This document shows positions 4,808 through 64,000 of a stretch of DNA of 64,000 nt, piece by piece; the stretch's first letter is position 1; every line of letters starts with the position of its first letter. Location: the NCBI GenBank assembly GCA_050261115.1, contig JBLNCY010000010.1:96001-160000 (forward strand), in the 5' to 3' direction. The stretch is from Methanocella sp. Its GTDB lineage: Archaea > Thermoproteota > Bathyarchaeia > Bathyarchaeales > Bathycorpusculaceae. The notes beneath the pieces are model-generated. The model did no database searches. It saw nothing but the letters and a program-made list of their open reading frames with translations, and was not told where the DNA came from. The translations under genes were made by a program, and so were the position numbers.

Positions 4808-6484
4808 TTAGCGGTAAAATGCTAAGAATCCGCCGAAGCGTGTCCAACTAAACCAGGACCAGAAGTGGTGGATGAAGCGGTAGACTATTTGTGGGACTGG
4901 CGATGGTGGCTCAGCGGGTATAGGCGTGGGTGTAGGTTGTTTTGTTGGTTCTGGTGTGGGTGACTTGGTTGGTGTTGGTTTGGTTGTGGGGGTTGGTGTA
5001 GCTGTTGGAGTTGGGGTTGGGGTGGCGGTTGGTGCTGGAGTGGGAGTAGCTGTTGGTGTTGGGGTTGGTGTTGCTGTAGGTTTAGGTGTGGGGGTTGCAG
5101 TCGGGGTTGGGGTTGGAGTTGCGGTCGGTGTGGGGGTCGGAGTTGCAGTTGGGGCTGGGGTTGGAGTCACGTTTGGGGTTGATGGCGCTTGGTATGCGTT
5201 AATGAAGTGTTGCCCCATGGTGTTTGGTGTGTATCCACTGGTTAGCATGGATTGCCCAACGTATACTCCGCCTAAGCCTGCTTCGCTTAGCCAGTAGTAG
5301 GCGCCGGCGCCGATGTTTAGGTCACGTTGTGCCAATAGTAGGTTCTTCCACCAAGTGTAATCGTTTTGCTTGTTTGGGGAAGATAACAAGCATGAGCCTT
5401 CTTCGTTGGCTACTAGTGGAGCGGTAACGCCCATGCTGTTTATTGCGGTTTGTAGCTGCGCTTTGATTCCTGCATAGTCTTTTGCCCAGTAGCTGCTAAG
5501 ATCGCTTGGTGCATAGTAGTAGAAGTGGGTTGTGTAGACTAGGTTGGTTGCTCCTGGGATTGCGTCGGCGATTTGTTTGCACCAGTTTAGTGTGTTGCCG
5601 TATCCGTTGGGGAACCAGCCCATGCGCCATTGCATCATGATCAAGTGGTTTGAGCCTGTGCCGCGGATGGCGTTGTACATTGTTTTTAGATAGGTCATGT
5701 AGCTTGATGGGATGGGGTCAACGTCGCTGCCGAGGTTTGGTTCGTTCCATGCTTCAAAGATTACGTTGGGGTAGTCTTTTAGAGTTGTTGCCATGTCTGC
5801 CCAGAACCACTGCCAAAAGCCTACTTCGTTGTTGCCATAGCCAGCGTCTTGGAGGAATCGGGTTGCTGATGCATCCCAGCCGGAAAGGGGCATGCCTTGC
5901 CAGCCAAAGTTGCTGGTTACGTATGGGTCGCGGTCGAAGCTGGCTGAGGAGGGGGTTAGCATATAGGGGACTATGTCGACGTAGATTCCGTATTTACCGG
6001 CTTCTTCGCAGAGCGTCTTCATGTAAGCTTTGATGCTTATGGGGGTGGTTTGACTGCTGTAGGATGAGCTTTCCTGTGATGGTGCAATGTTGTCTCTGTA
6101 CCACCAGCTTGGGAACATGAATACGCGTATGGCGTTTATTTTCCAGTCGTTTTTCATGACTTCAAAGGTGTCGCGCATTACTCCAGTGGGGTTGTAGTTC
6201 CATTGGACGCCCCAGTTGTCGCCGCCACCTTTGCCCCAGAGGATTAGGTCTGGCGCAAAGCCTGCAATGCCCATGCTCCGAAGGTAAACAGTGTTTCCAT
6301 CTGCATCGAGTATGTATGATCCTTGGGTATGAAGGGGTGATATCGTCGCTGCCTGCGCTGGCTGCACGGTGAGCACTGATAGCATGCTGATGACAAACAA
6401 TGCACTCATCGCAATCGCAAGGGGTTTTGCGGCCCTTTTGAAGTGTAAGGGGTGCAGTAGTCTTTCGATTTTTTTTGCGTTCAA
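4808..6484 (-). CDS. Secreted glycoside hydrolase family 5 (cellulase-like) with Pro/Thr linker and aromatic C-terminal tail
   Basis: Signal peptide ending AQA; [31 protein letters not shown] (acid/base), THFY and VANEEG (nucleophile) motifs. Confidence 0.85.
4922..5175 (-). repeat. Low-complexity PT/ATPTPT repeat encoding the GH5 linker
   Basis: Repeated ATPTPTPT units in translation; GGTGTTGGGGTT-type DNA repeats. Confidence 0.9.
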
Positions 6485-6781: not shown

Positions 6782-8059
6782 TTATTTTTTCTTTAGTTCT
6801 TCAAGGATTTCTTTAGCTCGGGCAACGTTAACTTTGCGTTCCTTTACCATCTGCGCCGCGACAGCCTCAATCAGTTCACCAGTTGCGCCAGCAGTCACCG
6901 CAATGTTTCTAGAGTGCAGAGACATATGCCCACGTTGGATACCTTCGCTTGCCAATGCCCTGAGTGCAGCTAGGTTCTGTGCTAAACCAACTGCCGCTAG
7001 GACTTCTCCGAATTCGTTCGCTGACTTAACCGATAGAATTTTCATGCATATGCGTGCGATGGGGTGGGTTTTTACGGCGCCGCCGATTAAGCCGATCGCC
7101 ATGGGTAACTCAATTGAGCCTTCTAAGTCGCCGTTAGCGTTCATGACCCATTTTGAGAAGGTTGTGTAGGGACCGTTTAGTGCGGCATAGGCGTGTCCGC
7201 CTGCTTCGATGGCGCGGTGGTCGTTACCGGTGGCAAGCACGACTGCTATGATGCCGTTCATGGCGCCCTTGTTGTGGGTTGCAGCGCGGTAGGGATCAGC
7301 CGCCGCGAAAGCCGAAGCATATGCGATGCCCTCGACGATTTCTTCGCCGCCTATTGCCTCTTTTGGCACGACGCAGGTTGCTTTGACGAGGCGCTTAACA
7401 GCCAAGTTAGAAATGATTCTCAGATATACGCGGCCGCCGGTGAGTTCTTCAATCATGGGTGCGACGGCTTCAGCCATAGTGTTGACCGCATTGGCGCCCA
7501 TTGCGTCGCGGCAGTCCACATAGAGATGAACGATAAGCATTTGCCCCATAGTGGTGTCGATAATTCGGGCATCTAGGTCTTTTGCGCCTCCGCCGAACTG
7601 GTTGAGGATGGGATCCTGCTCGTTGGCCTTTTTGAGAATACGCTCTTTTGCTTCCATTACGGCTTTCTGGGCTGATGCTGCATTTGGGAGTTTAGCGACT
7701 TGGATTTGGCCAATCATAATAGGCGCGGTGCTGCTTGTTTGGAAGCCTCCTCCTTCACGCACCATCTTTGCTGCGTTTGAAGCGGCGGCGATGACGCTGG
7801 GCTCCTCGGTGGCCATCGGGATAAGGTAGTCTTTACCGTTTATCTTGAAATTGACGGCTACGCCGAGGGGTTCGGGGAAGACGCCGATAACGTTTTCCAC
7901 CATGCGGTCGGCTACATCGAGGGGTAGACTGCAGGATTGTTGAAGAAGAGCTGCTTCTTCGGGGGTTAATTCTGCGAGGTCGGTGATTATTTTGAGGCGT
8001 TCTTGGGGTGATAGTTTGTAGAAGCCTGAGATAACTGATGACTTAGCCATATCGATCAC
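6782..8059 (-). CDS. mvaA: Hydroxymethylglutaryl-CoA reductase, class II
   Basis: ENVIG, PMATEEPSVIAAAS, DAMGANAVNT, ATHNKG and EGIQRGHMSLH motifs. Confidence 0.95.
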   Translation of the reverse strand: MIDMAKSSVISGFYKLSPQERLKIITDLAELTPEEAALLQQSCSLPLDVADRMVENVIGVFPEPLGVAVNFKINGKDYLIPMATEEPSVIAAASNAAKMVREGGGFQTSSTAPIMIGQIQVAKLPNAASAQKAVMEAKERILKKANEQDPILNQFGGGAKDLDARIIDTTMGQMLIVHLYVDCRDAMGANAVNTMAEAVAPMIEELTGGRVYLRIISNLAVKRLVKATCVVPKEAIGGEEIVEGIAYASAFAAADPYRAATHNKGAMNGIIAVVLATGNDHRAIEAGGHAYAALNGPYTTFSKWVMNANGDLEGSIELPMAIGLIGGAVKTHPIARICMKILSVKSANEFGEVLAAVGLAQNLAALRALASEGIQRGHMSLHSRNIAVTAGATGELIEAVAAQMVKERKVNVARAKEILEELKKK

Positions 8060-8141
8060 GCTGCAATCAAGTTCGGTTTTGCGCTATTAAACTTAGCTAA
8101 AAAATGAAAGAAATATGTCAGCCTGTTTAGGTTGCTGTGCC

Positions 8142-9599
8142 TTATCGTGTTAGCCAGCCGTTCTTTTTAAATCCCCATATCGCGGGGAACAATACCCATG
8201 GGAGCACTAACGCTGACATTAGATTCATGATGGGCTTGTATGTCCAGTGTTTTGCTGTTGGATCCCTGAATTTGTAGTCTAATCCCATGACTAGTCCGAT
8301 CAGCATTTGCCCTGCCAAATAAGTGACCGGGTACAAGTATGAATGGAGAACGATTGGTCCCCAGATGAATATGGAGAAGATTATGGCTGGAGCTATAAAG
8401 ACCGACATGAATTCCAAATAGAACAGCAAAGCCATGATCGGGTTCTTGCGCCAGAAAAATGCGCTCATAAAAAAGGTTGAGCGTAGGTACCCTTTCTTCC
8501 AGCGGGTTTGCTGCCGAATGTAGGTCCGCAAGTTTTCTGGTACGTCGGTGTAAACGACTGCTGTGGGCGCATAGACTGTTTCCCATTCTACTGCTATGGC
8601 TTGTGTGGTTAATGCGCGGTCTTCTGCATCGTCATAGCTTGCCATGGAAGCTAACATATGGGTCTTTAGGGGTGCTAATTGCCCCTTGGCCCAGGGCGTC
8701 GCAATAGCGTATGTTGTGAGGTTTCGGTCGTCGCCATATTGGATTTTATCGTTAGCCCATATGCTTACAAATTTGCTTATGGCTTCCCGTCGGTAAGCGG
8801 CTAAACAGCCCGACAAGCATAGTACCGTGCCAAAGAAGCTTTCGGAGGATTTACAGACGTTGAAGGAGTAGTCGTACCAAACGTCTTGGCATCGGGTTAG
8901 AAAGTTCTTGTCTGCATTTAGGACTTTGCCGTTTCCAACTATACCGCCAACCTTGGGGTTTGCGGCAAAGACCTTCATAAACTCCTCGATCGCATACTTA
9001 TCCACGATGCTGTCAGAGTCGATTAGCACTACAAAGTCGCCTCTTGCTGCGTAGAAACCAGTGGCGACGGCGGTCCGTTTTCCACCATTTGGTTTATGGA
9101 TTACTCTAAGGCGGGGATTTTTCTGTGCTAATGTGTCGAGGACTTTTGCGGTGTTGTCTTTGCTGCCATCGTTGACGGCTACGATTTCGAGGTTTCGATA
9201 TGACGAGCTGGAGACTGCTTTCACGACTTTTTCGATTAGGTTCTCTTGGTTATAAACGGGGATAATTACTGATACTAAGTCGTCTGGGGTTTTTCCTGTT
9301 GCTCTATTTTTAAAAAAGACCCAGCCCGTGACTAGAACTATCAAGGCGTGGATAGGCATCAACGTGGAATATACGATTAAGGGGTCTCCGACCGACAACG
9401 CGATTGCCGTGTTGAAGGCCAAAAAAGCGGTTAAACCTACAAGCATAAGCGCCCTAAGCACCCAAGCCTTTTTGCTAACAAAAATACGGCCGCTATTAGC
9501 AATCCGCTGCTTACAATGTCCACTTGCCTTTTCCTGTTCTTGGGGTGCCTCTATGCCATCTAATCGCAGTTCAGCGGCTGGTATCTGAATTTGCTCCAT
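8142..9599 (-). CDS. Processive GT2 glycosyltransferase, hyaluronan synthase/NodC/IcaA-like
   Basis: 2 N-terminal TM helices; VNDGSKD, GKR, DSDS, CLSGCLAAYR, GDDR/AEDR and QQTRW motifs; C-terminal TM helices. Confidence 0.85.
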   Translation of the reverse strand: MEQIQIPAAELRLDGIEAPQEQEKASGHCKQRIANSGRIFVSKKAWVLRALMLVGLTAFLAFNTAIALSVGDPLIVYSTLMPIHALIVLVTGWVFFKNRATGKTPDDLVSVIIPVYNQENLIEKVVKAVSSSSYRNLEIVAVNDGSKDNTAKVLDTLAQKNPRLRVIHKPNGGKRTAVATGFYAARGDFVVLIDSDSIVDKYAIEEFMKVFAANPKVGGIVGNGKVLNADKNFLTRCQDVWYDYSFNVCKSSESFFGTVLCLSGCLAAYRREAISKFVSIWANDKIQYGDDRNLTTYAIATPWAKGQLAPLKTHMLASMASYDDAEDRALTTQAIAVEWETVYAPTAVVYTDVPENLRTYIRQQTRWKKGYLRSTFFMSAFFWRKNPIMALLFYLEFMSVFIAPAIIFSIFIWGPIVLHSYLYPVTYLAGQMLIGLVMGLDYKFRDPTAKHWTYKPIMNLMSALVLPWVLFPAIWGFKKNGWLTR

Positions 9600-9601
9600 T
9601 C

Positions 9602-10324
9602 TTATGCCTCCTGCACTGTCAAGTCAAGTCCTGTTAGCTGAGAAGCGTTAACGAACTCGAAGTCCCCGTGGGTAAGTGTGGACAAGTAGGTTTGGATGGC
9701 ATCGGTTGGGATGTTGTTGTTGAATTGTAGGATAATGGGCTGTAGTGTTCTTGTGCCTTCTATGTATTCGGGAGTATGGTTGGATGCGTCAAAAACAAGG
9801 GCGGGGTATTTGATGAATTGCCCGTTTTGGTAGACGTTGTAGTGGTCGGTGTAGGAGAAGTCTGCATATATCCCTGAGCGGCCCAGAAGAGAAAATATGT
9901 CTTCGTCGGTGGCGCCGTTTGTTGCTTGAAAGGCCTTGCTGTTGAAGTTGCCGGCTTTGTCTACTGCGGCTTTGCCGTTCTGTACCTCTTGGAGTTTAAG
10001 GGTGTAATCTGTATAGTCGGTTAGGTTTTTGTTGCTGTAGGGTTGGTTTCCGATGTCAACTTTTTCGCCGAAGCAGGTTACGATTTGGGGGTATTGTTCT
10101 GCTATTTTGCCGGCTACAAAAACGGTTGCGGGCAAATCGTAGCTGTTTAGTATGGATGTGAGGTTTTGGCACCACTCAGTTGCGCCGTGAGGGTTTGTGA
10201 CTGAGAAGGTTAGCATTATGCGTTTGTCGACGTTTTCGGGTTTAAAGAAAAGGGGGCTTATCATCGCTGCCCCTACTACTATGACTATAACGGTAGCGAT
10301 TGTGGCCGCTGTCTTCAGTTTCAC
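9602..10324 (-). CDS. Membrane-anchored polysaccharide deacetylase (NodB)-fold protein with degenerate catalytic motifs
   Basis: N-terminal TM; MLTFS (vs TFDD), IL..YDLPATVFV.G, DIGNQPYSN (vs GNHxxxH). Confidence 0.6.
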   Translation of the reverse strand: MKLKTAATIATVIVIVVGAAMISPLFFKPENVDKRIMLTFSVTNPHGATEWCQNLTSILNSYDLPATVFVAGKIAEQYPQIVTCFGEKVDIGNQPYSNKNLTDYTDYTLKLQEVQNGKAAVDKAGNFNSKAFQATNGATDEDIFSLLGRSGIYADFSYTDHYNVYQNGQFIKYPALVFDASNHTPEYIEGTRTLQPIILQFNNNIPTDAIQTYLSTLTHGDFEFVNASQLTGLDLTVQEA

Positions 10325-10340
10325 TAAGAGTAGCGCCCCG

Positions 10341-11252
10341 TTAGATACCGAGTTTCTTTTTGCACGTTGGAACTGTCATTGCTTGATTGAGTGGTACAGC
10401 GCTAATTTCTAAACCGCTAATGAATCTGGTATACGCTATGTCTGACTGGATGGCGGCGGCTATGGTTGAGTTTGGCAAAAGGTGTTTTGAGAGTTCATAA
10501 AACATTTGGGTATCCTTAGGTAAACAGTGTCCGCCGATGCCTTCTCTGGCTTCTAGGAGGTTCTCGTTCCACTTGGTATTTACTGCCTCTCTGAGTTGAT
10601 CGAAATTTAGGGCTTGATCGTGGCAGAACATTTTTAGCTCTTCAGCAAATGCTATCTCAAGGAATCTGTGGGTATTTTCCACTACTTTTGTTAGCTCTGC
10701 GATCTCGATTGATTCTACTGGGTGAAGCGGGATGTTTAGGATGTCACTGTAGAAATATGTGGCCTCTGATAGACAGCAGGCGTGGCAGCCGCCTATGACG
10801 CGTAATTGTTTAACGCCATGCTCTTCTTTTTCTTCGCTAAAGTACCGGTGTGGGGCATGTGCAACGTGGAGTTTATGGTCGAATATTGTGCAAATCTCTT
10901 GGCTTATTCCTTTAGTTATGGTGCTCTCAATTATGACCAGGGCGCCGGGTTTGGCTTCGATGTTGATTTTTTCAGCAACGTTTAGTAGTCCCTCAAGGAA
11001 TGGTAGATACATATTCTTGGGGTTATGGGTTGAGACGCAGATCATGTAATAGTCGTAGCCTCGGAAGTTGGTTGCTTGTGCCTTTATTACCCCGTCCTGC
11101 AGCGCGCGTTGAACTGCTTGTGGGTTAATATCGTAGCCCTCTACGTCTAGGCCTAGTTGAGTCATGTACTCTGCGTTGTGGTATCCTATTTCTCCCAGTC
11201 CAATGATGATGGTCTTGGGTTGTTTTCGATTTAATACGCTTTTTTTAGCCAT
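10341..11252 (-). CDS. UDP-glucose/GDP-mannose (WecC-like) nucleotide-sugar dehydrogenase lacking the C-terminal domain
   Basis: IIGLGEIG, IEST, AELTKVVENT.R...IAFAEEL and GIGGHCLPKD motifs; only 303 aa. Confidence 0.8.
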   Translation of the reverse strand: MAKKSVLNRKQPKTIIIGLGEIGYHNAEYMTQLGLDVEGYDINPQAVQRALQDGVIKAQATNFRGYDYYMICVSTHNPKNMYLPFLEGLLNVAEKINIEAKPGALVIIESTITKGISQEICTIFDHKLHVAHAPHRYFSEEKEEHGVKQLRVIGGCHACCLSEATYFYSDILNIPLHPVESIEIAELTKVVENTHRFLEIAFAEELKMFCHDQALNFDQLREAVNTKWNENLLEAREGIGGHCLPKDTQMFYELSKHLLPNSTIAAAIQSDIAYTRFISGLEISAVPLNQAMTVPTCKKKLGI

Positions 11253-11518
11253 TTCCTTTCTCTTCCTATCGTTTGGTTGCTTTCACCCCTGTTTTTTGCA
11301 TGGCTCTTATGCGTTTTAGCGAATGGGGTTTTGCTGTTTTTAGAAACGGTGGTTCTCTTTTTGAAAAAGGGGCTTTGCAAAATTGCTAACTCGGCTTGGC
11401 AAGTTGCGAGCGTTAACTCGCATAAGCAAGCGCTAACACGTTTATTAACAAGTAACCCAAAGTCGGTTATGATCCCAAAAACGGCAGTTAAAACCGTGAA
11501 TAAGGGCTTCAAACGCTG

Positions 11519-56388: not shown

Positions 56389-57243
56389 CTAAGGGGTGGC
56401 TGATGGTTTTTTCTGGGCGTCCTTTACTTCATAGACGATGTTACTGCCAGATTTCATGTTGATGTCGTCGATTTCTTCTATCATTCGGTTAACCATTCTT
56501 CCCACGACGAGCACAAATACGTTGAGTCCTCTTGAGGCGGCGATTGCAGCGGAATGGCTTATGCCGAATTCTATGTCGGGGCTGTAGTTGAGTTTGTTGA
56601 GTACGGCTCTGCCTACTGCGCCCATTACGCCGATCCTGTCAGGTTTGAATTTTTCAATGTAGCTTTTTATTTTTGTTAGGTCTGTGGCTCGGGAGCCGCC
56701 CTTTCGGATGCTAGGCACCTTAACGATGAGAATCCTACCATGTTTAACGTTCACCCTTCCCTGTATGTTCTTTAATCCCAGGTCTTCTCCTGCTTTGGCA
56801 TCGGTCAGCGCAGTGCCTTTTGCTTCTGCCTCCGGGCTGTCTATGGGTACAGTGTACATGATACCTTCTTTCATTATCAATCCGACTTCTTCGCCGGCTT
56901 TGACTGGTGCTGTGGCTATGGCGGGCCAGGCGTGTTCGATTTTTAGGTCTTTTTTGATTTCGTTAAGGTAGCTTTCGAGGCCTCGTATGTCTTCTTGGAG
57001 CTTCATTAGGCCTTTGGGGGTGACGCGGTAGTCGGCTCGTTCGCTGCCTGCTTCGATGTAGCCTTCGCGGGCGAGTTTTTTGAAGTACTTTGAGATGGCT
57101 TGGATGGTTATGCCTAGTTTGTCGCTGATGTCTTTTTGTTTTATGTGCGGTTGGTTGCGCATGATTTCGAATAGAATTTGGAATCTGGTGAATTCGCCCT
57201 TGTTTGATAGGAGTTTTTGTTGTTGCTTCGACAGTTTTTGCAA
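56389..57243 (-). CDS. Winged-helix (MarR-like) transcriptional regulator with C-terminal extension
   Basis: QILFEI...QKDISDKLGITIQAISKY.K.L..EG...YRVTPKG. Confidence 0.8.
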   Translation of the reverse strand: MQKLSKQQQKLLSNKGEFTRFQILFEIMRNQPHIKQKDISDKLGITIQAISKYFKKLAREGYIEAGSERADYRVTPKGLMKLQEDIRGLESYLNEIKKDLKIEHAWPAIATAPVKAGEEVGLIMKEGIMYTVPIDSPEAEAKGTALTDAKAGEDLGLKNIQGRVNVKHGRILIVKVPSIRKGGSRATDLTKIKSYIEKFKPDRIGVMGAVGRAVLNKLNYSPDIEFGISHSAAIAASRGLNVFVLVVGRMVNRMIEEIDDINMKSGSNIVYEVKDAQKKPSATP

Positions 57244-57302
57244 CCCCAGTTTATTTAAGTTAAACTTGCGTTTATTAACTATTTCTCAGGCTAAAAAGCG
57301 CC

Positions 57303-58127
57303 TTAGACATCATAGCCCCTAGCTGTAACCATCCTTCCATTAATCACACGGGTCATTGAGTTACCTACAACAATTGTGGTTACCATGTCGATTTCCTCAT
57401 TAAGCATGTCCTTCAACGTAGTTATGGTGTAGGTTTGTCCCTCACGGCCAGCTTGACGTACGATTCCCACTGGCGTGTCTGGCTTGATGTTTTTCATCAT
57501 GATCTGGTATGCGTTGACGAGGGGTTCTGTGCGGCCTTGACTCTGCGGATTATAGAGAACGATTGAGACGTCAGCTTGAGCGGCCAATTCTATTCGGCTC
57601 CGAATTTTTTCCCAAGGCGTCAAGAGATCGCTTAAACTAATCACTGCGAAGTCACTGATGAGGGGTGCGCCAAGAATCGCTGACGCGGCGGTGGCTGCCG
57701 TTACGCCCGGCACGACTTCGACCTCGACTGGTTCTTTGTCTTTTGCTGCAACCTCTAGGACTACGCCTGCCATTCCGTAGACGCCGGGGTCACCGCTTGA
57801 CACCATAACTACCGCTTTGCCCTCCTTGGCTTTATCTACTGCGGTTTGGGCGCGTTCCACTTCTTTGCCCATAGTTCCTGAAATTACTTCAGCGCCTTTT
57901 TTGATTAAGCACTCAATGAGTTTTATGTATGTGCCGTAACCTACGACGACGTCGGCGCACTCGATTTCAGTGCGGGCTTTGGGAGTCAAGTGTTCGCAGC
58001 TGCCGGGTCCGATACCGACGACGGCTACTCGCCCATGGCTACTGCTACTGTTACCCCGTTTAGCTTGGTCTTTTTTAGAATCAACTTTGCATTTGGTCCT
58101 GCTACTAGTAAGGCTGCTCGTTCGCAT
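57303..58127 (-). CDS. cbiH: Cobalt-precorrin-3B C17-methyltransferase
   Basis: VVGIGPG, SSGDPGVYGMA, ISLSDLLTPW, LYNP and IDMVT motifs; start ambiguous. Confidence 0.9.
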   Translation of the reverse strand: MRTSSLTSSRTKCKVDSKKDQAKRGNSSSSHGRVAVVGIGPGSCEHLTPKARTEIECADVVVGYGTYIKLIECLIKKGAEVISGTMGKEVERAQTAVDKAKEGKAVVMVSSGDPGVYGMAGVVLEVAAKDKEPVEVEVVPGVTAATAASAILGAPLISDFAVISLSDLLTPWEKIRSRIELAAQADVSIVLYNPQSQGRTEPLVNAYQIMMKNIKPDTPVGIVRQAGREGQTYTITTLKDMLNEEIDMVTTIVVGNSMTRVINGRMVTARGYDV

Positions 58128-59110
58128 ACTCCTCCAATTCCAATTTTTGATTGTACCATCGCCGAATCAGGCGAAAGGTCACTATATGTGACTGTGCGCA
58201 GTGCCTCCACACTTAGAAACTCTAGTGGGGCACCCAACTTGGAAACTGCATCTAGCATCGGTTGAGAATCCCGCTTAATGTCCACGGTTGCAAAGGCGTT
58301 GACGCGCGAGAGGGGCACATGAATTTTCTCTAGCGCGGTGTCGACGGCTTGTATGATGCTTTCTGCGCTGGATTCTTTGCGCGCCCCAAGCCCCACCACT
58401 AACTTGCGTGATTTCAGGATAGTGAAGGGTTTAGTAAATTTGGTGATAGTAAGCGGCTGGTCGGTGATAATGATACCCGCGTCAAAGCTGCCAAGAATGC
58501 TAAATGCCTCAGCGCCGTTTTGAGCGGTTCTTGTTTCGTATGCGGCAAGGGCGTCTGGAGGGACTTTTGCGTCGCCGACTAACACGACTACGATACGGTC
58601 GCCATTAACTATCGCCGAATTTAACGCCACAAGGCTGTCAGGGTTCTCGATTCTAAGATGTAGCCGTTTAGCTATCTCTTCTATGCTTTGTTTGCCCATA
58701 ACGTCTGAGGCGGTGGTTATGACGGGTATAGCGTTGATGCCAGCGGCGATGATGTGAGTCAGGTCGTTTGCGCCTCCCAGATGACCTGAGAGTAGACTGA
58801 TGACGAATTTGCCTTGGGCGTCCACGCCGACTATTGCCGGGTCAGTAAGTTTGCTCTCAAGCAGTGGCGCCACCGTCCGTATAGCAATACCCGTAGCCAT
58901 AACCGCCACTATCCCATCCACTTGACTGTAAATGTTTCCAAAAACTTCTGGAAGCTTCTTCTCTAAAGGTACCATGCCAGTTTGGCTATACTTCGGGGGC
59001 ACATAGACGGTTGCCTTAATCTGGGCTGACTCGAGGGCACGCCTAATTCTTTGGGCGGTCTCGACGCCTCGGCGAGTTAAGGCTACAACTGCTATGCCCC
59101 TTTCGTACAT
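58025..59110 (-). CDS. cbiG: Cobalt-precorrin-5A hydrolase
   Basis: MATGIAIR, DPA, LLSGHLGGAN, ITTASD and GVCERAA motifs. Confidence 0.92.
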   Translation of the reverse strand: MYERGIAVVALTRRGVETAQRIRRALESAQIKATVYVPPKYSQTGMVPLEKKLPEVFGNIYSQVDGIVAVMATGIAIRTVAPLLESKLTDPAIVGVDAQGKFVISLLSGHLGGANDLTHIIAAGINAIPVITTASDVMGKQSIEEIAKRLHLRIENPDSLVALNSAIVNGDRIVVVLVGDAKVPPDALAAYETRTAQNGAEAFSILGSFDAGIIITDQPLTITKFTKPFTILKSRKLVVGLGARKESSAESIIQAVDTALEKIHVPLSRVNAFATVDIKRDSQPMLDAVSKLGAPLEFLSVEALRTVTYSDLSPDSAMVQSKIGIGGVCERAALLVAGPNAKLILKKTKLNGVTVAVAMGE

Positions 59111-59112
59111 GG

Positions 59113-59877
59113 TTATTCTTCGCCTTTACGGAAGCCCGTTGTGAATTTTGGGTCATAGAGTTTGGAGTAGTCGTAGGCTTGGGGGTCAAGAACGCGACCG
59201 ACAAATATCAAGGCGGTTTCGGTTATGCCTGCAGCTTTGACTTTTCCTACAATGTCGCCTAGAGTGCCTTTGACTATTTTCTGTTCGGGCCAGGTGGCTT
59301 TGTAGACTACTTGGCAAGGTGTATCTTTGGGGTAGCCGCCGGCTTGGAGCTCCTCAACGACTTTCTTAATGTGCGGCGTTCCAAGAAATATGACCATGGT
59401 GGCTTGGTGTACGGCGAGTTTGCGAAGGCTTTCGGCTTCGGGGACGGGGGTTCGGCCCTCAGGTCGTGTGATGATTACTGTCTGGGATATGTTGGGTAGG
59501 GTTAATTCGCGGTTTAGTGCCGCGGCGCCTCCAAGGAGACAGCTGATACCTGGGATGCGGAAGTACTCAATTCCCTCTTTGTCTAGAGCCGTCATGACCT
59601 CTTGAATGGCACCATAAAAGCTCGGGTCGCCATCATGCAGCCGCACCACACGTTTGCCCGCTTTGACACCTTCGACCATGACCTTTAGCATTTCGGGCAA
59701 ACCCATCTTTGCGCTGTCGTAGAGTTCGGCGTCTGGTTTGCAGTACTTGAGGTATTCGGGGTTGAGTAGGCTGCCTGTGTAGACGACTACGTCGGCTTGC
59801 TCAAGCCATTTTTTGCCTTTCAAGGTGATGAGTTCAGGGTCGCCTGAGCCTGCACCGATAAAAACAACTTTATTCAA
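59113..59877 (-). CDS. cbiF: Cobalt-precorrin-4 C11-methyltransferase
   Basis: FIGAGSGDPELIT, RLHDGDPSFYGA, ELTLP.ISQ and SKLYD motifs; TTG start at 59877 overlapping the cbiL stop. Confidence 0.92.
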   Translation of the reverse strand: MNKVVFIGAGSGDPELITLKGKKWLEQADVVVYTGSLLNPEYLKYCKPDAELYDSAKMGLPEMLKVMVEGVKAGKRVVRLHDGDPSFYGAIQEVMTALDKEGIEYFRIPGISCLLGGAAALNRELTLPNISQTVIITRPEGRTPVPEAESLRKLAVHQATMVIFLGTPHIKKVVEELQAGGYPKDTPCQVVYKATWPEQKIVKGTLGDIVGKVKAAGITETALIFVGRVLDPQAYDYSKLYDPKFTTGFRKGEE

Positions 59878-60643
59878 TCTTTGACACACTTCCGTTCTGT
59901 TTCCAGTGAATAGGAACCTGACTTTTCTTAACAATAGCCACCGAGAAGTAATCCTCCTTAACATCCCAGCCCTCGACATCGCCAAGTTTACCGACCATAA
60001 CCTTCTCCTCCGCCAGAGTACAGCGTTTAACCAACGCTACAGTTGAATCTTTGGTGAAGCCTGCTCTGAGTAGGATGGGGATGTATTCTTTTATGCGGTA
60101 GGCGCATTTCATAAAGACAAGGTTCTCGGCGTGTTTGGCGACTTCTGCTAAGCGGTCTGCTTTGAGGTCGGCGGGTATGATGGTGACGACTTCGTCTTGC
60201 TCTGCGAGCGGCAGTTTGGATCTTGCGGCGACTGCGGTGAGGGAGGTTACGCCAGGGATGATTTCTAGCTCGATTTGGGGGTAGCTTTCTTTTAGGTATT
60301 CATAGAGGTAGAGGAATGTGCTGTACAGCATGGGGTCGCCAAGCGTGATGAAGGCGACGTCGCCTTGCTTGACTTTGGCGGTGACTATCACAGCGTTTTC
60401 TGCCCAGAGCTTTCGGTTGTTTAGGTCATCTCGGCTCATGGGAAAAACGAGCTCTAGGATTTCGGCGGGGTTTGTCCGTTCACCAAGTATGGGTTTAATC
60501 ATGCCTAGTGCCATACTGGGTCTGTTTGGGTGGGACTTGGGTACGCAGATAGTGTCCACTGATTTGAGGGTTTTTGCTGCTTTGAGGGTGAGTAATTCGG
60601 GGTCGCCTGGACCTACACCGATTCCGATAAAAACGCCGACCAA
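59870..60643 (-). CDS. cbiL: Cobalt-precorrin-2 C20-methyltransferase
   Basis: GVGPGDPELLTLKA, FPM, LGDPMLYSTF and YFS motifs. Confidence 0.92.
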   Translation of the reverse strand: MVGVFIGIGVGPGDPELLTLKAAKTLKSVDTICVPKSHPNRPSMALGMIKPILGERTNPAEILELVFPMSRDDLNNRKLWAENAVIVTAKVKQGDVAFITLGDPMLYSTFLYLYEYLKESYPQIELEIIPGVTSLTAVAARSKLPLAEQDEVVTIIPADLKADRLAEVAKHAENLVFMKCAYRIKEYIPILLRAGFTKDSTVALVKRCTLAEEKVMVGKLGDVEGWDVKEDYFSVAIVKKSQVPIHWKQNGSVSKIE

Positions 60644-60655
60644 ACATTTCTTCTC

Positions 60656-61261
60656 CTATAGTTTTGTTGCTGAAATCACCGTTATGGGGTTGCGGGCGGT
60701 CATCATGGTTCCGCTGGGGGTCTGTTTGCCTTTGGCGACTTGAATGCTTGCTATGTCGATGTCTTGGTAGCCTAAGGCTTTGAGCTCCGAGATTGCGGTT
60801 GCCGCCGTTTCGAGTTGGATTGCGTTTATGACGATTCTGCCGGTGGGTTTGAGTTTGTAGTGAGCTGTTTGGATGATGGTTCGGAGGTTTGCGCCTCCTC
60901 CGCCGATGAATATGGCGTCTGCGTTGGGCATGCTTATAAGCGCTTCAGGTGCACGCGCCTTTGAAACCGCCACCGTGTTTTCGACGCCGAATTTCTGCAC
61001 ATTACTCTTGGTTAGGGTGACTGCTGCTTCGTTTTCGTCTATGGCGTAGACTCTGCCTTTGCCTCCCACTTGTAGTGCCGCTTCAACGGTTAATCCTCCT
61101 GTGCCGCAGCCTACGTCAATGACTGTGTTCCCGTCGTTGAGTCGGGCTTTGGCTATGGTGACGACTCGGACTTCCTCTTTAGTGGGTCCCGGCACAGCCT
61201 CACCCTGATTGAAGCACTCGTCAGGTATTCCCGGTGTTTTGTATGCCCAGTTTCTAGCCAT
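60656..61261 (-). CDS. cbiT: Cobalt-precorrin-6B C15-methyltransferase (decarboxylating)
   Basis: PGIPDE.F, TKEEVR, DVGCGTG, FIGGG and ARNPI motifs. Confidence 0.92.
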   Translation of the reverse strand: MARNWAYKTPGIPDECFNQGEAVPGPTKEEVRVVTIAKARLNDGNTVIDVGCGTGGLTVEAALQVGGKGRVYAIDENEAAVTLTKSNVQKFGVENTVAVSKARAPEALISMPNADAIFIGGGGANLRTIIQTAHYKLKPTGRIVINAIQLETAATAISELKALGYQDIDIASIQVAKGKQTPSGTMMTARNPITVISATKL

Positions 61262-61934
61262 ATACTTCATGTCCCGTTGGTTGTTTGATTACCATAACTG
61301 AGAGGGCGCCGAAGGTTTGCCCCTGCAACCTCTCAAGAGACATCATGGTTACTCTTTCATTCTCCAAAGTCAGGTTCTCACAGACCACGACTTGGGTTTC
61401 TTTGTCTGCGTCGCGTTGAAGCAGAAACGCCGCAATATCCTTAGGCGCAAAGCCTCTCGCGTCAGGCAACAGCAGGATCGTGTTTCCGCGCTGGTATGCC
61501 TGGAGCAGTTTCTCTTTCTGGTCTTCTGTTACTTGCCCTTCATGGAATGTAAAGAGCCTAGCGCTTTCCCAGTTAAGGCGTAATCGGGCTGCGCATACCT
61601 GAATGGAACTGACACCAGGAACCACATTGATCTGTTCTGGGCTAAATAAGCCGCTTTCTTGCACAGTGTGCAGTAGCCCTGAGAATCCGGGGTCGCCTGT
61701 TGACAGCAATGCGACGGTTTTGCCAGCCTTTACGGCTTCTGATGTCGCTTTGAGGGTTTCGGCGAGGTTTTTAGCGGTTAAAACCATCTTTTCGCCTTTT
61801 ATGTCGCCCTCAAAGAGGCTAAGACTTCTCTGTGCACCGATAACCAGCTGTGCCTGCAGAACGCAATTTCTTGCAGCGGGGGTAATGTAGTCCGCCGAAC
61901 CCGGGCCAACGCCGACTATGTCAAGTTTTCCCAA
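61254..61934 (-). CDS. cbiE: Cobalt-precorrin-7 C5-methyltransferase
   Basis: VGVGPGS, STGDPGFSG, PGVSSIQ and CENLT motifs. Confidence 0.9.
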   Translation of the reverse strand: MGKLDIVGVGPGSADYITPAARNCVLQAQLVIGAQRSLSLFEGDIKGEKMVLTAKNLAETLKATSEAVKAGKTVALLSTGDPGFSGLLHTVQESGLFSPEQINVVPGVSSIQVCAARLRLNWESARLFTFHEGQVTEDQKEKLLQAYQRGNTILLLPDARGFAPKDIAAFLLQRDADKETQVVVCENLTLENERVTMMSLERLQGQTFGALSVMVIKQPTGHEVYG

Positions 61935-63016
61935 GGCCTATCCCTCTTTGCGTTTTGATCCATACCCAACACGGTGCCATCCATGGCAACGATAACAACA
62001 CTAAACTTCACTTTATGATCCACCCGATCGCTGACCTGCTTATGGACACGCTCGGCAATCAGGTCGTAGGTGGCTTCCACAAGATTTGCGTGGCGCAGGA
62101 TTTCGGTTGCTTCATCAGTGGTGTTTGCCTCAAGGAGTTCTTTGACGATGGTTTGTGTTGCTCCTGCTGCAGCCGCGTAGGCTGCTATGACCTCATTTCG
62201 AGCGTCACCCATTTTGTGGTGGGTGTTGAAGAGCCTCGCGGCGAGCTTGACAAGTTTCCCCGAGTGACCGATGAAGATAATTTCTTTGACTCCTTTTTCG
62301 GCGGCTTTGTCAAGCATGTAGCCGACGAAGTCGCAGGTCTGCACTATCGCATCCTCTGGAGCGCTGAATTTCTCTTTGGCTATGCGTTCACCGATGCTGC
62401 CTGGCACAAAAATCAGCCGCTTGTACCCTCTTGCGAGGGCGACGTCGATTTGGGGCACCATGGATCTTCGGCATGCCTCCACCGAGAGGGGCTTAACGAC
62501 GCCTGTGGTGCCTAGGATGGATATGCCGCCTTTGATGCCCAATTTAGCGTTAGTGGTTTTCTTAGCTATATTCGCGCCTTCCGGTGCGCTTATGGTTACT
62601 ACGGCGCCTTTTCCTTGGGGGAGAACTTCTTTGACGGCTTCTGTTATCATGGCTCGTGGAACTGGGTTGATGGCGCCTTCGCCAATCGGAACCTGCAAAC
62701 CCGCCTTGGTGACGACGCCTATGCCTTCCCCGTTTCGGATGGTGATTTTGCCGTCGTCGGTTAGTTTAACGGTTGCTACTATGTCCATTTTATCGGTGGC
62801 ATCGATGTCTTGACCTGCGTCCTTTACGGCGACGGCCAGGGCGGTGTCAGCGGTGATTCTTTTGGTGGTTTTTATGGGTAGCTCGAATCTGATGCCGATG
62901 GGGGTTGGGATAACGACGCGGTTAACCTCTCCACTCAATAATACCGTTGCTGCGGCTTTGGCTGCTGCGGCCGCCGTGGCACCCGTTGATAGACCGAACT
63001 TCAAAAACCGCGCCAA
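61916..63016 (-). CDS. cbiD: Cobalt-precorrin-5B C1-methyltransferase
   Basis: STGATAAAAAKA, KDAG, AINPVPR, GGISILGTTG and GKLVKLA...THH motifs. Confidence 0.95.
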   Translation of the reverse strand: MARFLKFGLSTGATAAAAAKAAATVLLSGEVNRVVIPTPIGIRFELPIKTTKRITADTALAVAVKDAGQDIDATDKMDIVATVKLTDDGKITIRNGEGIGVVTKAGLQVPIGEGAINPVPRAMITEAVKEVLPQGKGAVVTISAPEGANIAKKTTNAKLGIKGGISILGTTGVVKPLSVEACRRSMVPQIDVALARGYKRLIFVPGSIGERIAKEKFSAPEDAIVQTCDFVGYMLDKAAEKGVKEIIFIGHSGKLVKLAARLFNTHHKMGDARNEVIAAYAAAAGATQTIVKELLEANTTDEATEILRHANLVEATYDLIAERVHKQVSDRVDHKVKFSVVIVAMDGTVLGMDQNAKRDRPWENLT

Positions 63017-63030
63017 ACCCTTCTTCTCCT

Positions 63031-64000
63031 TTAACCGTAGAGTTTTCCTTCCGCTTTAGTAAGTAACGCGTTGAAGATCGCGACTGCGATGGTGCTGCCG
63101 CCTTTGCGGCCACGCGTAACGATATAGGGCACTGGTAGGTTGGCGATGGTATCTTTGGATTCGGCGGCGCCTACAAACCCCACTGGAACCGCCACAATCA
63201 GAGCCGGCTTAACTTTTCCTTCCCTGATTTGGGCTGCAAGTTCAAGGGCTGCTGTTGGAGCGTTACCGATTAGCACGATGCCGCCGTCTAAGCCATCCTC
63301 TATGGCTAACCTCATAGCTGCTGCGGACCGGGTAAGGTCCTCTTTTCTGGCGAGCTCCATTACGCGGCAGTCATTCATATAGGTCTGAACTTGAGTGCCG
63401 AACTTTTTGAGGCGCGCAGCGTTAATGCCTGCTTTAATCATTTTGACGTCGCTTACAACTTTGGCGCCTGCTTTAATTGCGGCTACACCCGCTTGGACCG
63501 CGTTTGGGCTAATAACAATGAGCTTTGCAAACTCGGGGTCAGCTGTTGTGTGGACAACCCGCTCCACAATGGCTATGTCGTCTGGCGGGGATTTTGCTAA
63601 TTCTTCTCCTATGGCTTCTCGGATAAGCAACATGGACTTATCGACGATTTTTCCCGCTTCAGGAACTGAGTATGCGTCGAGAATTTCGCTGTCTTTTTTT
63701 AGTTCGCAGCCTAACGCTTTGAGTGCTTTCTCTTCGAGGATGTCTGCGATGCGTTCATCGCTGCCTAAGGGTTCGCCATAGAGGAGTTCCACGCCTTTGG
63801 ATTTTAGCTGGGGCTCTTTTTCTTTAACTCCGATGAGTCCAGGGATGTCCTGTGTTGTATGGACTCCTGGCGCTAGGAAGGCTGGAACCAAAACAATCTT
63901 TGAAACTCCGCTTGTTGCTATGCTGTCGATGGCTTCCTCGACGGTTGGGGTGTCCCGTATCATAAATGCAATCGAAACCGTTTGGAATTTTTTTCTAAGG
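63031..64000 (-). CDS. cbiC: CbiX cobaltochelatase-CbiC precorrin-8X methylmutase fusion (5' end outside the window)
   Basis: N part AFM...P.VEEAI...VPAFLAPGVHTTQDIP...EPLG.D (CbiX); C part RVVHTTAD, IGNAPTA, PVGFVGAAESK and GRKGGS (CbiC). Confidence 0.88.
   Translation of the reverse strand, partial: LRKKFQTVSIAFMIRDTPTVEEAIDSIATSGVSKIVLVPAFLAPGVHTTQDIPGLIGVKEKEPQLKSKGVELLYGEPLGSDERIADILEEKALKALGCELKKDSEILDAYSVPEAGKIVDKSMLLIREAIGEELAKSPPDDIAIVERVVHTTADPEFAKLIVISPNAVQAGVAAIKAGAKVVSDVKMIKAGINAARLKKFGTQVQTYMNDCRVMELARKEDLTRSAAAMRLAIEDGLDGGIVLIGNAPTAALELAAQIREGKVKPALIVAVPVGFVGAAESKDTIANLPVPYIVTRGRKGGSTIAVAIFNALLTKAEGKLYG

Follow-up and report, generated by a model that had tools for sequence, protein, structure and literature searches.

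A conserved three-gene cassette around a hyaluronan synthase-like glycosyltransferase: a candidate archaeal exopolysaccharide system

Introduction

Class I hyaluronan synthases (HAS), which include the Chlorella virus HAS, Xenopus HAS1 and the streptococcal and Bacillus HasA proteins, are membrane synthase-translocases made of one polypeptide in which N- and C-terminal helices surround a GT-A domain. They carry the motifs QQxRW, G/A-(D/E)-DR and a C-terminal W-x-T-R, and their operon may also hold a dehydrogenase gene (hasB). The present work deals with an archaeal locus of related layout, in which genes for a dehydrogenase, a NodB-fold protein and a family 2 glycosyltransferase (GT2) follow one another. 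It lies in a stretch of 64,000 nucleotides, here called the window, taken from contig JBLNCY010000010.1 (positions 96,001 to 160,000) of assembly GCA_050261115.1, which is deposited as Methanocella sp. and placed in the Bathyarchaeia by GTDB. The cassette has the following features.

10341..11252, minus strand: two-domain dehydrogenase resembling UDP-glucose dehydrogenase (UGDH), 303 aa (PF03721 and PF00984)
9602..10324, minus strand: NodB-fold protein of carbohydrate esterase family 4 (CE4), 240 aa (PF01522, E 7.4e-13)
8142..9599, minus strand: predicted GT2 processive synthase-translocase, 485 aa (Pfam, NCBIfam, motifs and fold)
8637..8741, minus strand: family-specific GT2 insert of about 35 aa (residues 287-321), recognised by alignment and by the repeat of a motif
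11253..11518, minus strand: intergenic 266 nt 5' of the dehydrogenase gene, where the cassette promoter presumably lies
8099..8117, minus strand: T-rich tract about 25-45 nt past the GT2 stop, a possible archaeal transcription stop

Unlike the class I enzymes, to which it is 19-21% identical, the GT2 of the window falls into a clade of its own, holds a 35-aa insert with a duplicated motif and ends at its WLTR. The dehydrogenase differs from HasB in being of the N-acetylhexosamine (HexNAc) type and in lacking a UDP-binding domain, and hasA/hasB systems have no membrane-tethered partner with a CE4 fold.

Rhizobial NodC and NodB offer a second parallel, a GT2 with the same motifs beside a NodB-fold gene; the QQLRW and WLSR of NodC align with the corresponding archaeal motifs. 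However, the NodC model gives 122 bits against a cut-off of 550, and neither nodA-type nor transporter genes are present here. Rhizobial NodB works as a soluble deacetylase and has all its motifs, whereas the window protein is membrane-anchored and has lost them. The PgaCD/PgaB and IcaAD/IcaB systems unite a synthase and its small membrane partner with an extracytoplasmic CE4 protein, serve in biofilms and provide the highest NCBIfam score of the GT2. In contrast to the archaeal enzyme, which stays under the cut-off of that family, PgaC has QRLRW and no W-x-T-R end. PgaB and IcaB are active deacetylases, and no dehydrogenase belongs to pga or ica.

A non-catalytic extracytoplasmic subunit, BcsB, sits on BcsA via one membrane helix and guides the chain. 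By analogy, the NodB-like protein is modelled as a helix-anchored outer subunit on the synthase, but BcsB has another fold and a C-terminal anchor, and BcsA, which is controlled by cyclic di-GMP, is a weaker fold match (query-normalised TM-score, TMq, 0.46-0.53).

On balance we favour the reading that the three genes form one conserved archaeal module, in which a synthase makes and exports a polysaccharide of the cell surface or the extracellular space that contains HexNAc and is possibly acidic. That the genes form a module is supported by synteny in 48 of 53 loci and by their 13- to 25-fold co-induction in Nitrososphaera viennensis.

The cassette and its conservation

Within the window the three genes lie on the minus strand, 16 nt apart at the junction of the dehydrogenase and NodB-like genes and 2 nt apart at that of the NodB-like and GT2 genes. 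The tight, co-oriented spacing noticed in an earlier sequence-only reading of the region is thus confirmed, and the three genes are predicted to be co-transcribed. On the upstream side of the cassette the only long gap is that of 266 nt, which presumably holds the candidate promoter. Beyond it lies a gene for a metallo-beta-lactamase-fold nuclease. The closest public locus (L001, from a Bathyarchaeota metagenome-assembled genome, MAG) repeats this arrangement of nuclease and dehydrogenase genes, with identities of 82% for the GT2, 88% for the nuclease and 87% for the 3-hydroxy-3-methylglutaryl-CoA (HMG-CoA) reductase encoded downstream. Such identities make a Bathyarchaeia genome the most likely source of the window. 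Oligo-T tracts are linked to archaeal transcription termination, and downstream of the GT2 stop codon (TAA at 8144-8142) runs the T-rich stretch atatttctttcattttttagc.

Relatives of the GT2 are numerous. More than 1240 were found at E ≤ 1e-10, and the best 120 listed are 59-100% identical; 'hyaluronan synthase' is the name given to such homologues automatically by one source. A scan of one genome per species recovered 67 loci in Bathyarchaeia, Nitrososphaeria (Nitrosopumilaceae, Nitrosotalea, Nitrososphaera and Nitrosarchaeum) and a few Chloroflexota/Dehalococcoidia MAGs. Among the 53 with at least 1900 nt of upstream sequence, the 48 syntenic loci show the order dehydrogenase, NodB-like gene, GT2 gene on one strand, with tight or overlapping junctions. 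The neighbourhood is beyond chance, and the possibility, raised at the outset, that the genes would not stay together in relatives was not borne out.

The Chloroflexota copies deserve separate attention. Their GT2 proteins nest inside those of Bathyarchaeia at two places on the tree, and in five loci (L007, L008, L015, L022 and L053) a full-length dehydrogenase of 418-446 aa, encoded about 1-2.5 kb upstream of the GT2 gene, replaces the short one. These full-length enzymes score best with TviB, a UDP-GlcNAc 6-dehydrogenase (280-324 bits, cut-off 592; GlcNAc, N-acetylglucosamine), and their closest structures are UDP-ManNAc dehydrogenases (ManNAc, N-acetylmannosamine). At one of the loci (L008) a GlmS-like gene precedes the dehydrogenase; an open reading frame (ORF) of about 607 aa that clusters with this GlmS-like gene occurs in six loci, and the Pfam scan covered the L008 copy. 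The Chloroflexota cassettes look like a transfer between domains followed by the replacement of one part, and the substituted enzymes point to HexNAc and oxidised HexNAc rather than to UDP-glucuronate.

A second gene of the CE4/DUF2334 type lies on the same strand within 6.5 kb in 33 of the 62 loci with at least 1 kb of downstream sequence: 25 of 39 in Nitrososphaerota, 5 of 17 in Bathyarchaeota and 3 of 6 in Chloroflexota. In the three copies aligned, the deacetylase motifs are intact (RLDD, HGWEH and TH). The window and its nearest relatives (L001-L006, L009, L010 and L013) have no such downstream gene. Two CE4 genes and a glycoside hydrolase family 18 (GH18) gene flank the gene of the best plasmid relative of the GT2, a Paenibacillus protein of 32% identity.

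Two further observations concern the ammonia oxidisers. Nitrosotalea loci (L036, 10953-13844; also L034, L038 and L066) encode a DltD/SGNH-like protein of about 960 aa with many pentapeptide repeats, whose gene sits between the GT2 gene and further CE4 genes. In three GT2 paralogues from Nitrososphaeraceae (L056, L062 and L063; 39-47% identity, 507-598 aa) the insert is longer and the first motif has decayed. None has a dehydrogenase or NodB-like neighbour, and an ORF of the CE4 cluster lies downstream on the opposite strand.

Expression in Nitrososphaera viennensis

Expression data were taken from supplementary tables S3-S5 of PMC11561398, which compare N. viennensis EN76 on air-exposed floating filters with liquid culture. 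These tables list two tandem cassettes of the same three-gene order. Genes of the second are strongly up on filters (19.5-fold for the short dehydrogenase NVIE_023900, 24.9-fold for the NodB-like NVIE_023910 and 13.0-fold for the GT2 NVIE_023920), and the hypothetical gene which follows, NVIE_023940, is up 9.7-fold (PMC11561398). For the first cassette the corresponding filter-to-liquid ratios are 0.97 (dehydrogenase, NVIE_023860), 0.90 (NodB-like, NVIE_023870) and 0.59 (GT2, NVIE_023880).

The resemblance to the window extends to the proteins. Inspected by eye, the sequences in the PMC11561398 supplement include short dehydrogenases of 286 and 303 aa, degenerate CE4 motifs and a doubled GT2 motif, which reads YDDSEDR and NSDDRDLT in NVIE_023920. 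The two N. viennensis cassettes (NVIE_023860-023880 and NVIE_023900-023920) thus share with the window the gene order, the degenerate CE4 domain, the short dehydrogenase and the doubled motif; they differ in being tandem copies in another phylum and in being annotated, in the supplement, only as putative exopolysaccharide (EPS) genes. The authors place such genes under EPS production or biosynthesis, citing Kerou et al. 2016. As far as these published tables go, the kind of system is therefore known, its homologues being listed as putative EPS genes in ammonia oxidisers. In our literature search no description of the stripped-down helper proteins or of the doubled motif was found; Kerou et al. 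2016 may already describe the genes.

The GT2 synthase

Sequence models place the GT2 among polysaccharide synthases. In Pfam it matches Glycos_transf_2 (1.7e-32), Chitin_synth_2 (1.8e-15) and Glyco_tranf_2_3. The top NCBIfam scores, to PgaC_IcaA (TIGR03937, 161.8 bits) and NodC (TIGR04242, 122.2 bits), lie below the respective cut-offs of 422.3 and 550, so that the protein is a member of neither family. Weak matches to AglJ, AglG and dolichyl-phosphate hexose transferase cover only the first half of the GT-A domain. A phmmer search of the PDB gave hyaluronan synthases at E ~1e-20, chitin synthases at ~6e-8 and BcsA at ~4e-4.

The fold points in the same direction. An AlphaFold2 model built from 53 homologues (predicted local distance difference test, pLDDT, 81; predicted TM-score, pTM, 0.82) places helices at residues 43-95 and 357-475, on either side of the catalytic domain. 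In Foldseek the first 13 places all go to hyaluronan synthases of Xenopus or Chlorella virus (TMq 0.56-0.69, identity 19-21%, E 9e-19, 470-490 columns); lower down come chitin synthases (TMq 0.45-0.51) and BcsA (0.46-0.53). These 13 matches agree with the sequence-only reading, which had proposed a processive synthase of the HAS/NodC type.

Four motifs are invariant across the 53 aligned GT2 sequences: D144, DSD (194-196), AEDR (325-328) and QQTRW (363-367). In an alignment with rhizobial NodC, the PgaC proteins of Escherichia coli and Ralstonia, the in-frame part of pXO1 hasA and the Paenibacillus GT2, all four line up with the motifs of HasA and NodC. QQTRW resembles the HasA motif and the QQLRW of NodC, not the QRLRW of PgaC, and the last four residues of the protein, WLTR (482-485), align with WGTR in HasA and WLSR in NodC.

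The loop motif is doubled. A first GDDR (289-292), likewise conserved among the 53 homologues, lies in the insert, while AEDRALT (325-331) is the segment that lines up with the canonical loop G(D/E)DR in HasA and NodC. The sequence-only reading had rightly listed D, DxD, GDDR and QQTRW with flanking helices; the GDDR which it cited, however, is the one in the family-specific insert, and the canonical loop is AEDR. The segments GDDRNLTTYAIATPW (289-303) and AEDRALTTQAIAVEW (325-339) are identical at 9 of 15 positions. The insert is missing from the aligned HasA, NodC, PgaC and Paenibacillus proteins, and within the 53 sequences its residues D291, R292, L294 and T295 are at least 90% conserved. 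It looks like an internal duplication which carries a second copy of the catalytic-loop motif.

A quick IQ-TREE phylogeny of 46 rows comprised the window protein, 39 of the 67 locus proteins (full-length and diverse) and six references: two NodC, two PgaC, the Paenibacillus GT2 and the in-frame part of pXO1 hasA. All 40 family members form one clade (SH-aLRT 88), apart from the pXO1 HasA fragment. Reference branches measure 2.4-9 substitutions per site, which calls for a long-branch warning. A comparison of this sort had been suggested together with the sequence-only reading. It establishes the family as a clade of its own.

Motifs and model together class the GT2 as a processive synthase of the HAS/NodC/chitin-synthase type, embedded in the membrane and forming a family of its own, with polymer making as its presumed activity. 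A conserved cytosolic stretch before the first membrane helix (residues 28-46, consensus HCKQRIS..GRI.VSKKAW) is a candidate docking site for the dehydrogenase.

The NodB-fold protein

The NodB-fold protein consists of one N-terminal membrane helix (about residues 5-27) and a CE4 domain (PF01522, 49 bits against a cut-off of 23.1); the structural neighbours of its Atlas model are all PF01522 clusters (TM 0.65-0.76). Aligned with NodB of Rhizobium leguminosarum, the domain has TFSV for TFDD (catalytic and metal-binding aspartates replaced), QPYSN for HTMTH (both metal histidines replaced), QATNG for RAPYG (the RxPY arginine replaced) and QFNN for LLHD (the catalytic histidine replaced). In 52 of 52 orthologues the aspartate and the two histidines of the metal site are lost along with the catalytic histidine; a few have D or E at the first TFDD position. 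Since the metal triad and the catalytic histidine are gone throughout, the protein would be a conserved pseudo-deacetylase. The pairing of a synthase with a deacetylase, as in ica and pga loci, had been part of the sequence-only reading and does not hold for the window protein or its orthologues.

A structure prediction for the GT2 together with the NodB-like protein scored 0.70 (runs 0.68, 0.70 and 0.70), while the best of three controls scored 0.00. The score clears the mark used for such predictions. Of 157 solved complexes 116 clear it as well, and of 215 mismatched pairs 2 do; these counts are rough here as our own alignments were used. The runs share at least 83% of their contacts, with a partner pLDDT of at least 87, and the predicted interface joins the helix of the NodB-like protein (residues 3-28) to GT2 residues 72-80 and 376-418. 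We know of no solved complex of a CE4 protein with a GT2 synthase that the prediction could have remembered. The model thus supports the NodB-like protein as a membrane-tethered partner of the synthase with an outward-facing domain.

The short dehydrogenase

Two of the three domains of a nucleotide-sugar dehydrogenase are recognisable in the third protein, namely the Rossmann domain for NAD and the central domain for dimerisation and catalysis. Pfam finds the central UDPG_MGDP_dh domain (E 4.3e-17) and the N-terminal one (7.5e-09), and not PF03720. TIGR03026 gives 136.8 bits against a cut-off of 189.8 and is covered at profile positions 72-286 of 413. Scores are 81 bits for UDP-ManNAc dehydrogenase, 57.5 bits for TviB and at most 37 bits for the UDP-glucose 6-dehydrogenase models. 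The AlphaFold2 model (pLDDT 86) matches UDP-ManNAc dehydrogenase 4r16 best (TMq 0.74; target-normalised, TMt, 0.55) and overlays the first two domains of UDP-ManNAc dehydrogenase, CalS8 and Cap5O; the listed Foldseek matches are all three-domain enzymes of 377-475 aa.

For comparison, 44 short copies were assembled from the window and 43 archaeal loci. Their longest ORFs are mostly about 285-350 aa, and the C-terminal UDP-binding domain of the full-length enzymes has no aligned counterpart in them. PF03720 is absent from the best 120 database homologues (265-361 aa), and a profile search of 1.84 billion representatives returned 180 proteins at E ≤ 1e-30, with only 7 of the best 150 reaching 390 aa or more. 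On these alignments, the missing domain is a general trait of the short dehydrogenase and no accident of this genome. An analogy with hasA/hasB, drawn in the sequence-only reading, fares badly here, as the enzyme is nearest to UDP-ManNAc and UDP-GlcNAc dehydrogenases and all 44 archaeal copies lack the UDP-binding domain.

The remaining domains are well kept. At least 95% of the 44 copies retain the glycines of the GxGxxG motif (G18, G20 and G23) together with K189, N193, C243 and D247, all of which align with the full-length Chloroflexota enzymes; D41 is invariant. K189, N193, C243 and D247 make up the catalytic set of UGDH, with roles known from the UGDH literature. Further invariant residues are specific to the family (C156, C159, C160, C210, H126, H129, H132, H135 and H145).

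An Atlas feature search gave short two-domain UGDH-like clusters (275-338 aa) in Actinomycetota and Minisyncoccota as well, which is a lead only; truncated UGDH-like enzymes may form a wider, uncharacterised group. At one locus (L011, 6337-7986) the dehydrogenase and the NodB-like protein read as one ORF of 549 aa, with no stop before the TTG start of the latter. The topology of such a fusion would be consistent, with a cytosolic domain, a membrane helix and an outside domain. As evidence of contact it was rejected, being an isolated read-through: at E ≤ 1e-30 the only longer homologue found (542 aa, 51% of the query covered) has an unrelated fused domain.

A model for the cassette

In the module that we favour, the GT2 would sit in the membrane through two N-terminal and about four C-terminal helices, with a fold and motifs observed in the model and alignments and an activity presumed from them. 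Its cytosolic GT-A domain would use UDP-sugars, at least one of them a HexNAc. The enzyme would elongate the chain processively and export it through its own channel, like class I hyaluronan synthases, NodC and chitin synthases. The NodB-like protein, which would have no deacetylase activity, may be held by its single N-terminal helix on the transmembrane helices of the synthase, as the complex model suggests. Outside the cell its dead CE4 domain could receive, guide or retain the emerging chain.

The least certain step is that of the dehydrogenase. This cytosolic, NAD-binding enzyme would oxidise a C6 alcohol to a carboxylate in a four-electron reaction; its Cys/Lys/Asn/Asp set is kept, and the polymer would in this way acquire an acidic HexNAc-uronic component. 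In many relatives, though not in the window, an intact CE4/DUF2334 deacetylase encoded downstream would partly de-N-acetylate the product. The polymer would likely serve in matrix formation on surfaces. As to its nature, our best guess is a HexNAc-containing, possibly uronic-acid-bearing polymer, whereas hyaluronan is not a likely product.

Several results weigh against this model. The UDP-binding domain of all solved relatives is absent from the dehydrogenase, which therefore may not make a UDP-uronic acid at all. Nor is there a separate gene for that domain, as tblastn with the C-terminal 135 aa of five full-length enzymes, run on the window and all loci, matched only the five loci of origin. 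In addition, the invariant His135 of the short enzyme replaces the glutamate of the 'PER' motif. For the GT2, pLDDT falls below 50 at residues 287-312 and 323-336, so that the catalytic-loop region is poorly predicted, and nowhere is the model less confident than in the insert. The reference branches of the tree are too long for a sister group among HasA, NodC and PgaC to be named, and the number of sugars used can therefore not be read from kinship.

The genomic evidence has its exceptions too. Five of the 53 loci break the order: one lacks the dehydrogenase (L014), one lacks the NodB-like gene (L024), one has that gene downstream instead (L047), one is a divergent paralogue with neither (L062) and one has broken genes (L064). 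In N. viennensis the first cassette (NVIE_023860-023880) is not induced on filters. The window itself holds no intact deacetylase anywhere in its 64 kb, and the region is housekeeping and no EPS island. Its other genes include those for ribosomal protein L15e, RNase P subunits, GatD/GatE, the CCA-adding enzyme, enolase and cobalamin synthesis.

Alternative readings

The strongest competitor, a possible reading but clearly the less probable one, is a neutral homopolymer or oligomer of GlcNAc (similar to chitin, chitooligosaccharides or poly-N-acetylglucosamine), with the dehydrogenase acting as a redox-sensing or regulatory NAD(H) subunit or on another small molecule. All characterised relatives polymerise GlcNAc (PgaC_IcaA at 161.8 bits, NodC at 122.2 bits, the chitin synthase Pfam family at E 1.8e-15). 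Deacetylases of the CE4/DUF2334 type lie downstream in 33 of 62 loci, and the CE4 and GH18 genes around the Paenibacillus relative fit as well. So does a dehydrogenase with neither a UDP-binding domain nor a split copy of it nearby, of a short form which the Atlas lead also places in bacteria. However, the retention of K189, N193, C243 and D247 in the 44 copies would be unexpected for a mere sensor. The replacement of the short enzyme by a complete UDP-HexNAc-type dehydrogenase in the five Chloroflexota loci argues for the need of an oxidised sugar, and in the N. viennensis tables the dehydrogenase is co-induced with the synthase.

A bolder version of the favoured module is doubtful as a whole. 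In it the product would be an acidic HexNAc-uronic polymer, chitin- or hyaluronan-like and not described before, made by a new route: the dehydrogenase without a UDP-binding domain would work on or with the synthase, or on a non-nucleotide sugar, and the dead CE4 protein would be an obligatory outer subunit of the synthase.

A true hyaluronan system, equivalent to hasA/hasB and making alternating glucuronic acid and GlcNAc, is improbable. By sequence and by fold the GT2 matches hyaluronan synthases best, the QQTRW motif is the same as in the solved hyaluronan synthases aligned, and one source names the homologues accordingly. Yet identity to the solved enzymes is 19-21%, and the GT2 family clade is separate from the pXO1 HasA fragment. 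Moreover, the dehydrogenase is truncated and scores far higher with the UDP-ManNAc and TviB models (81 and 57.5 bits) than with UDP-glucose 6-dehydrogenase (at most 37 bits), and the full-length Chloroflexota substitutes are of the HexNAc type too.

Still less probable is a non-processive GT2, which would load a lipid carrier or a glycolipid with one sugar and so serve N-glycosylation or the making of membrane lipids. Dolichyl-phosphate sugar synthases are common among archaeal GT2 enzymes, and the half-domain matches to AglJ, AglG and dolichyl-phosphate hexose transferase recall them. However, QQTRW, the C-terminal WLTR, about six membrane helices, a fold that matches hyaluronan, chitin and cellulose synthases over its whole length and the predicted dedicated extracellular partner all fit a synthase.

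Implications

Judged by motif and domain content, two of the three gene labels are misleading, as the cassette has no working deacetylase and no complete nucleotide-sugar dehydrogenase. Current annotations such as 'hyaluronan synthase', 'polysaccharide deacetylase', 'UDP-ManNAcA dehydrogenase' and 'potassium transporter TrkA' are unsafe. On the favoured reading of a polysaccharide module, the cassette is a defined three-gene candidate for the matrix of ammonia-oxidising archaea and Bathyarchaeia, which are abundant in soils and sediments. As it is conserved in both groups and surface-induced in a cultured strain, it can be expressed and assayed directly.

For enzymology, two questions stand out: what a UGDH-like enzyme does without its nucleotide-binding domain, and whether a catalytically dead CE4 domain can serve as a structural subunit of a GT2 synthase. 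If the bolder acidic-polymer reading were true, the product would be a main matrix component of two of the most abundant archaeal groups in soils and sediments, because the cassette is common to Bathyarchaeia and ammonia-oxidising archaea and is on during surface growth.

Genes around the cassette

Three further features of the window concern the surroundings.

6782..8059, minus strand: HMG-CoA reductase gene (TIGR00532, 495 bits)
4808..6484, minus strand: glycoside hydrolase family 5 (GH5) gene (PF00150, E 1e-18)
56389..63963, minus strand: cobalamin-synthesis run (CbiC/CbiX, CbiD, several tetrapyrrole methylases and CbiG) beside a winged-helix regulator

The GH5 enzyme had been read from the sequence as a processing or release enzyme of the polymer. 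That the system includes this gene, for a hydrolase that trims or releases the polymer, is barely credible: the gene shares the strand of the cassette, 1.66 kb downstream of it, and its product is apparently secreted or surface-anchored, but it is found in none of the 49 loci with at least 3.4 kb of downstream sequence and in none of the 67 overall, the closest relative (L001) keeps the HMG-CoA reductase gene without it, the T-rich tract, the HMG-CoA reductase gene and a 297-nt gap separate it from the GT2 gene, and its best solved relatives are of the endoglucanase type (8zvk, E 1.6e-34, then CelA). The GH5 gene is an unrelated neighbour of the cassette, and the HMG-CoA reductase gene follows downstream in only one of the loci.

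With a hydrophobic segment at the N-terminus, a long linker of Pro/Thr-rich repeats and a hydrophobic C-terminal tail, the GH5 protein in its own right looks like a cell-surface-anchored enzyme of the endoglucanase type. The HMG-CoA reductase scores 495 bits with TIGR00532, the NAD-dependent 'degradative' class, against 66 bits with TIGR00533, the NADPH class usually named for archaea.

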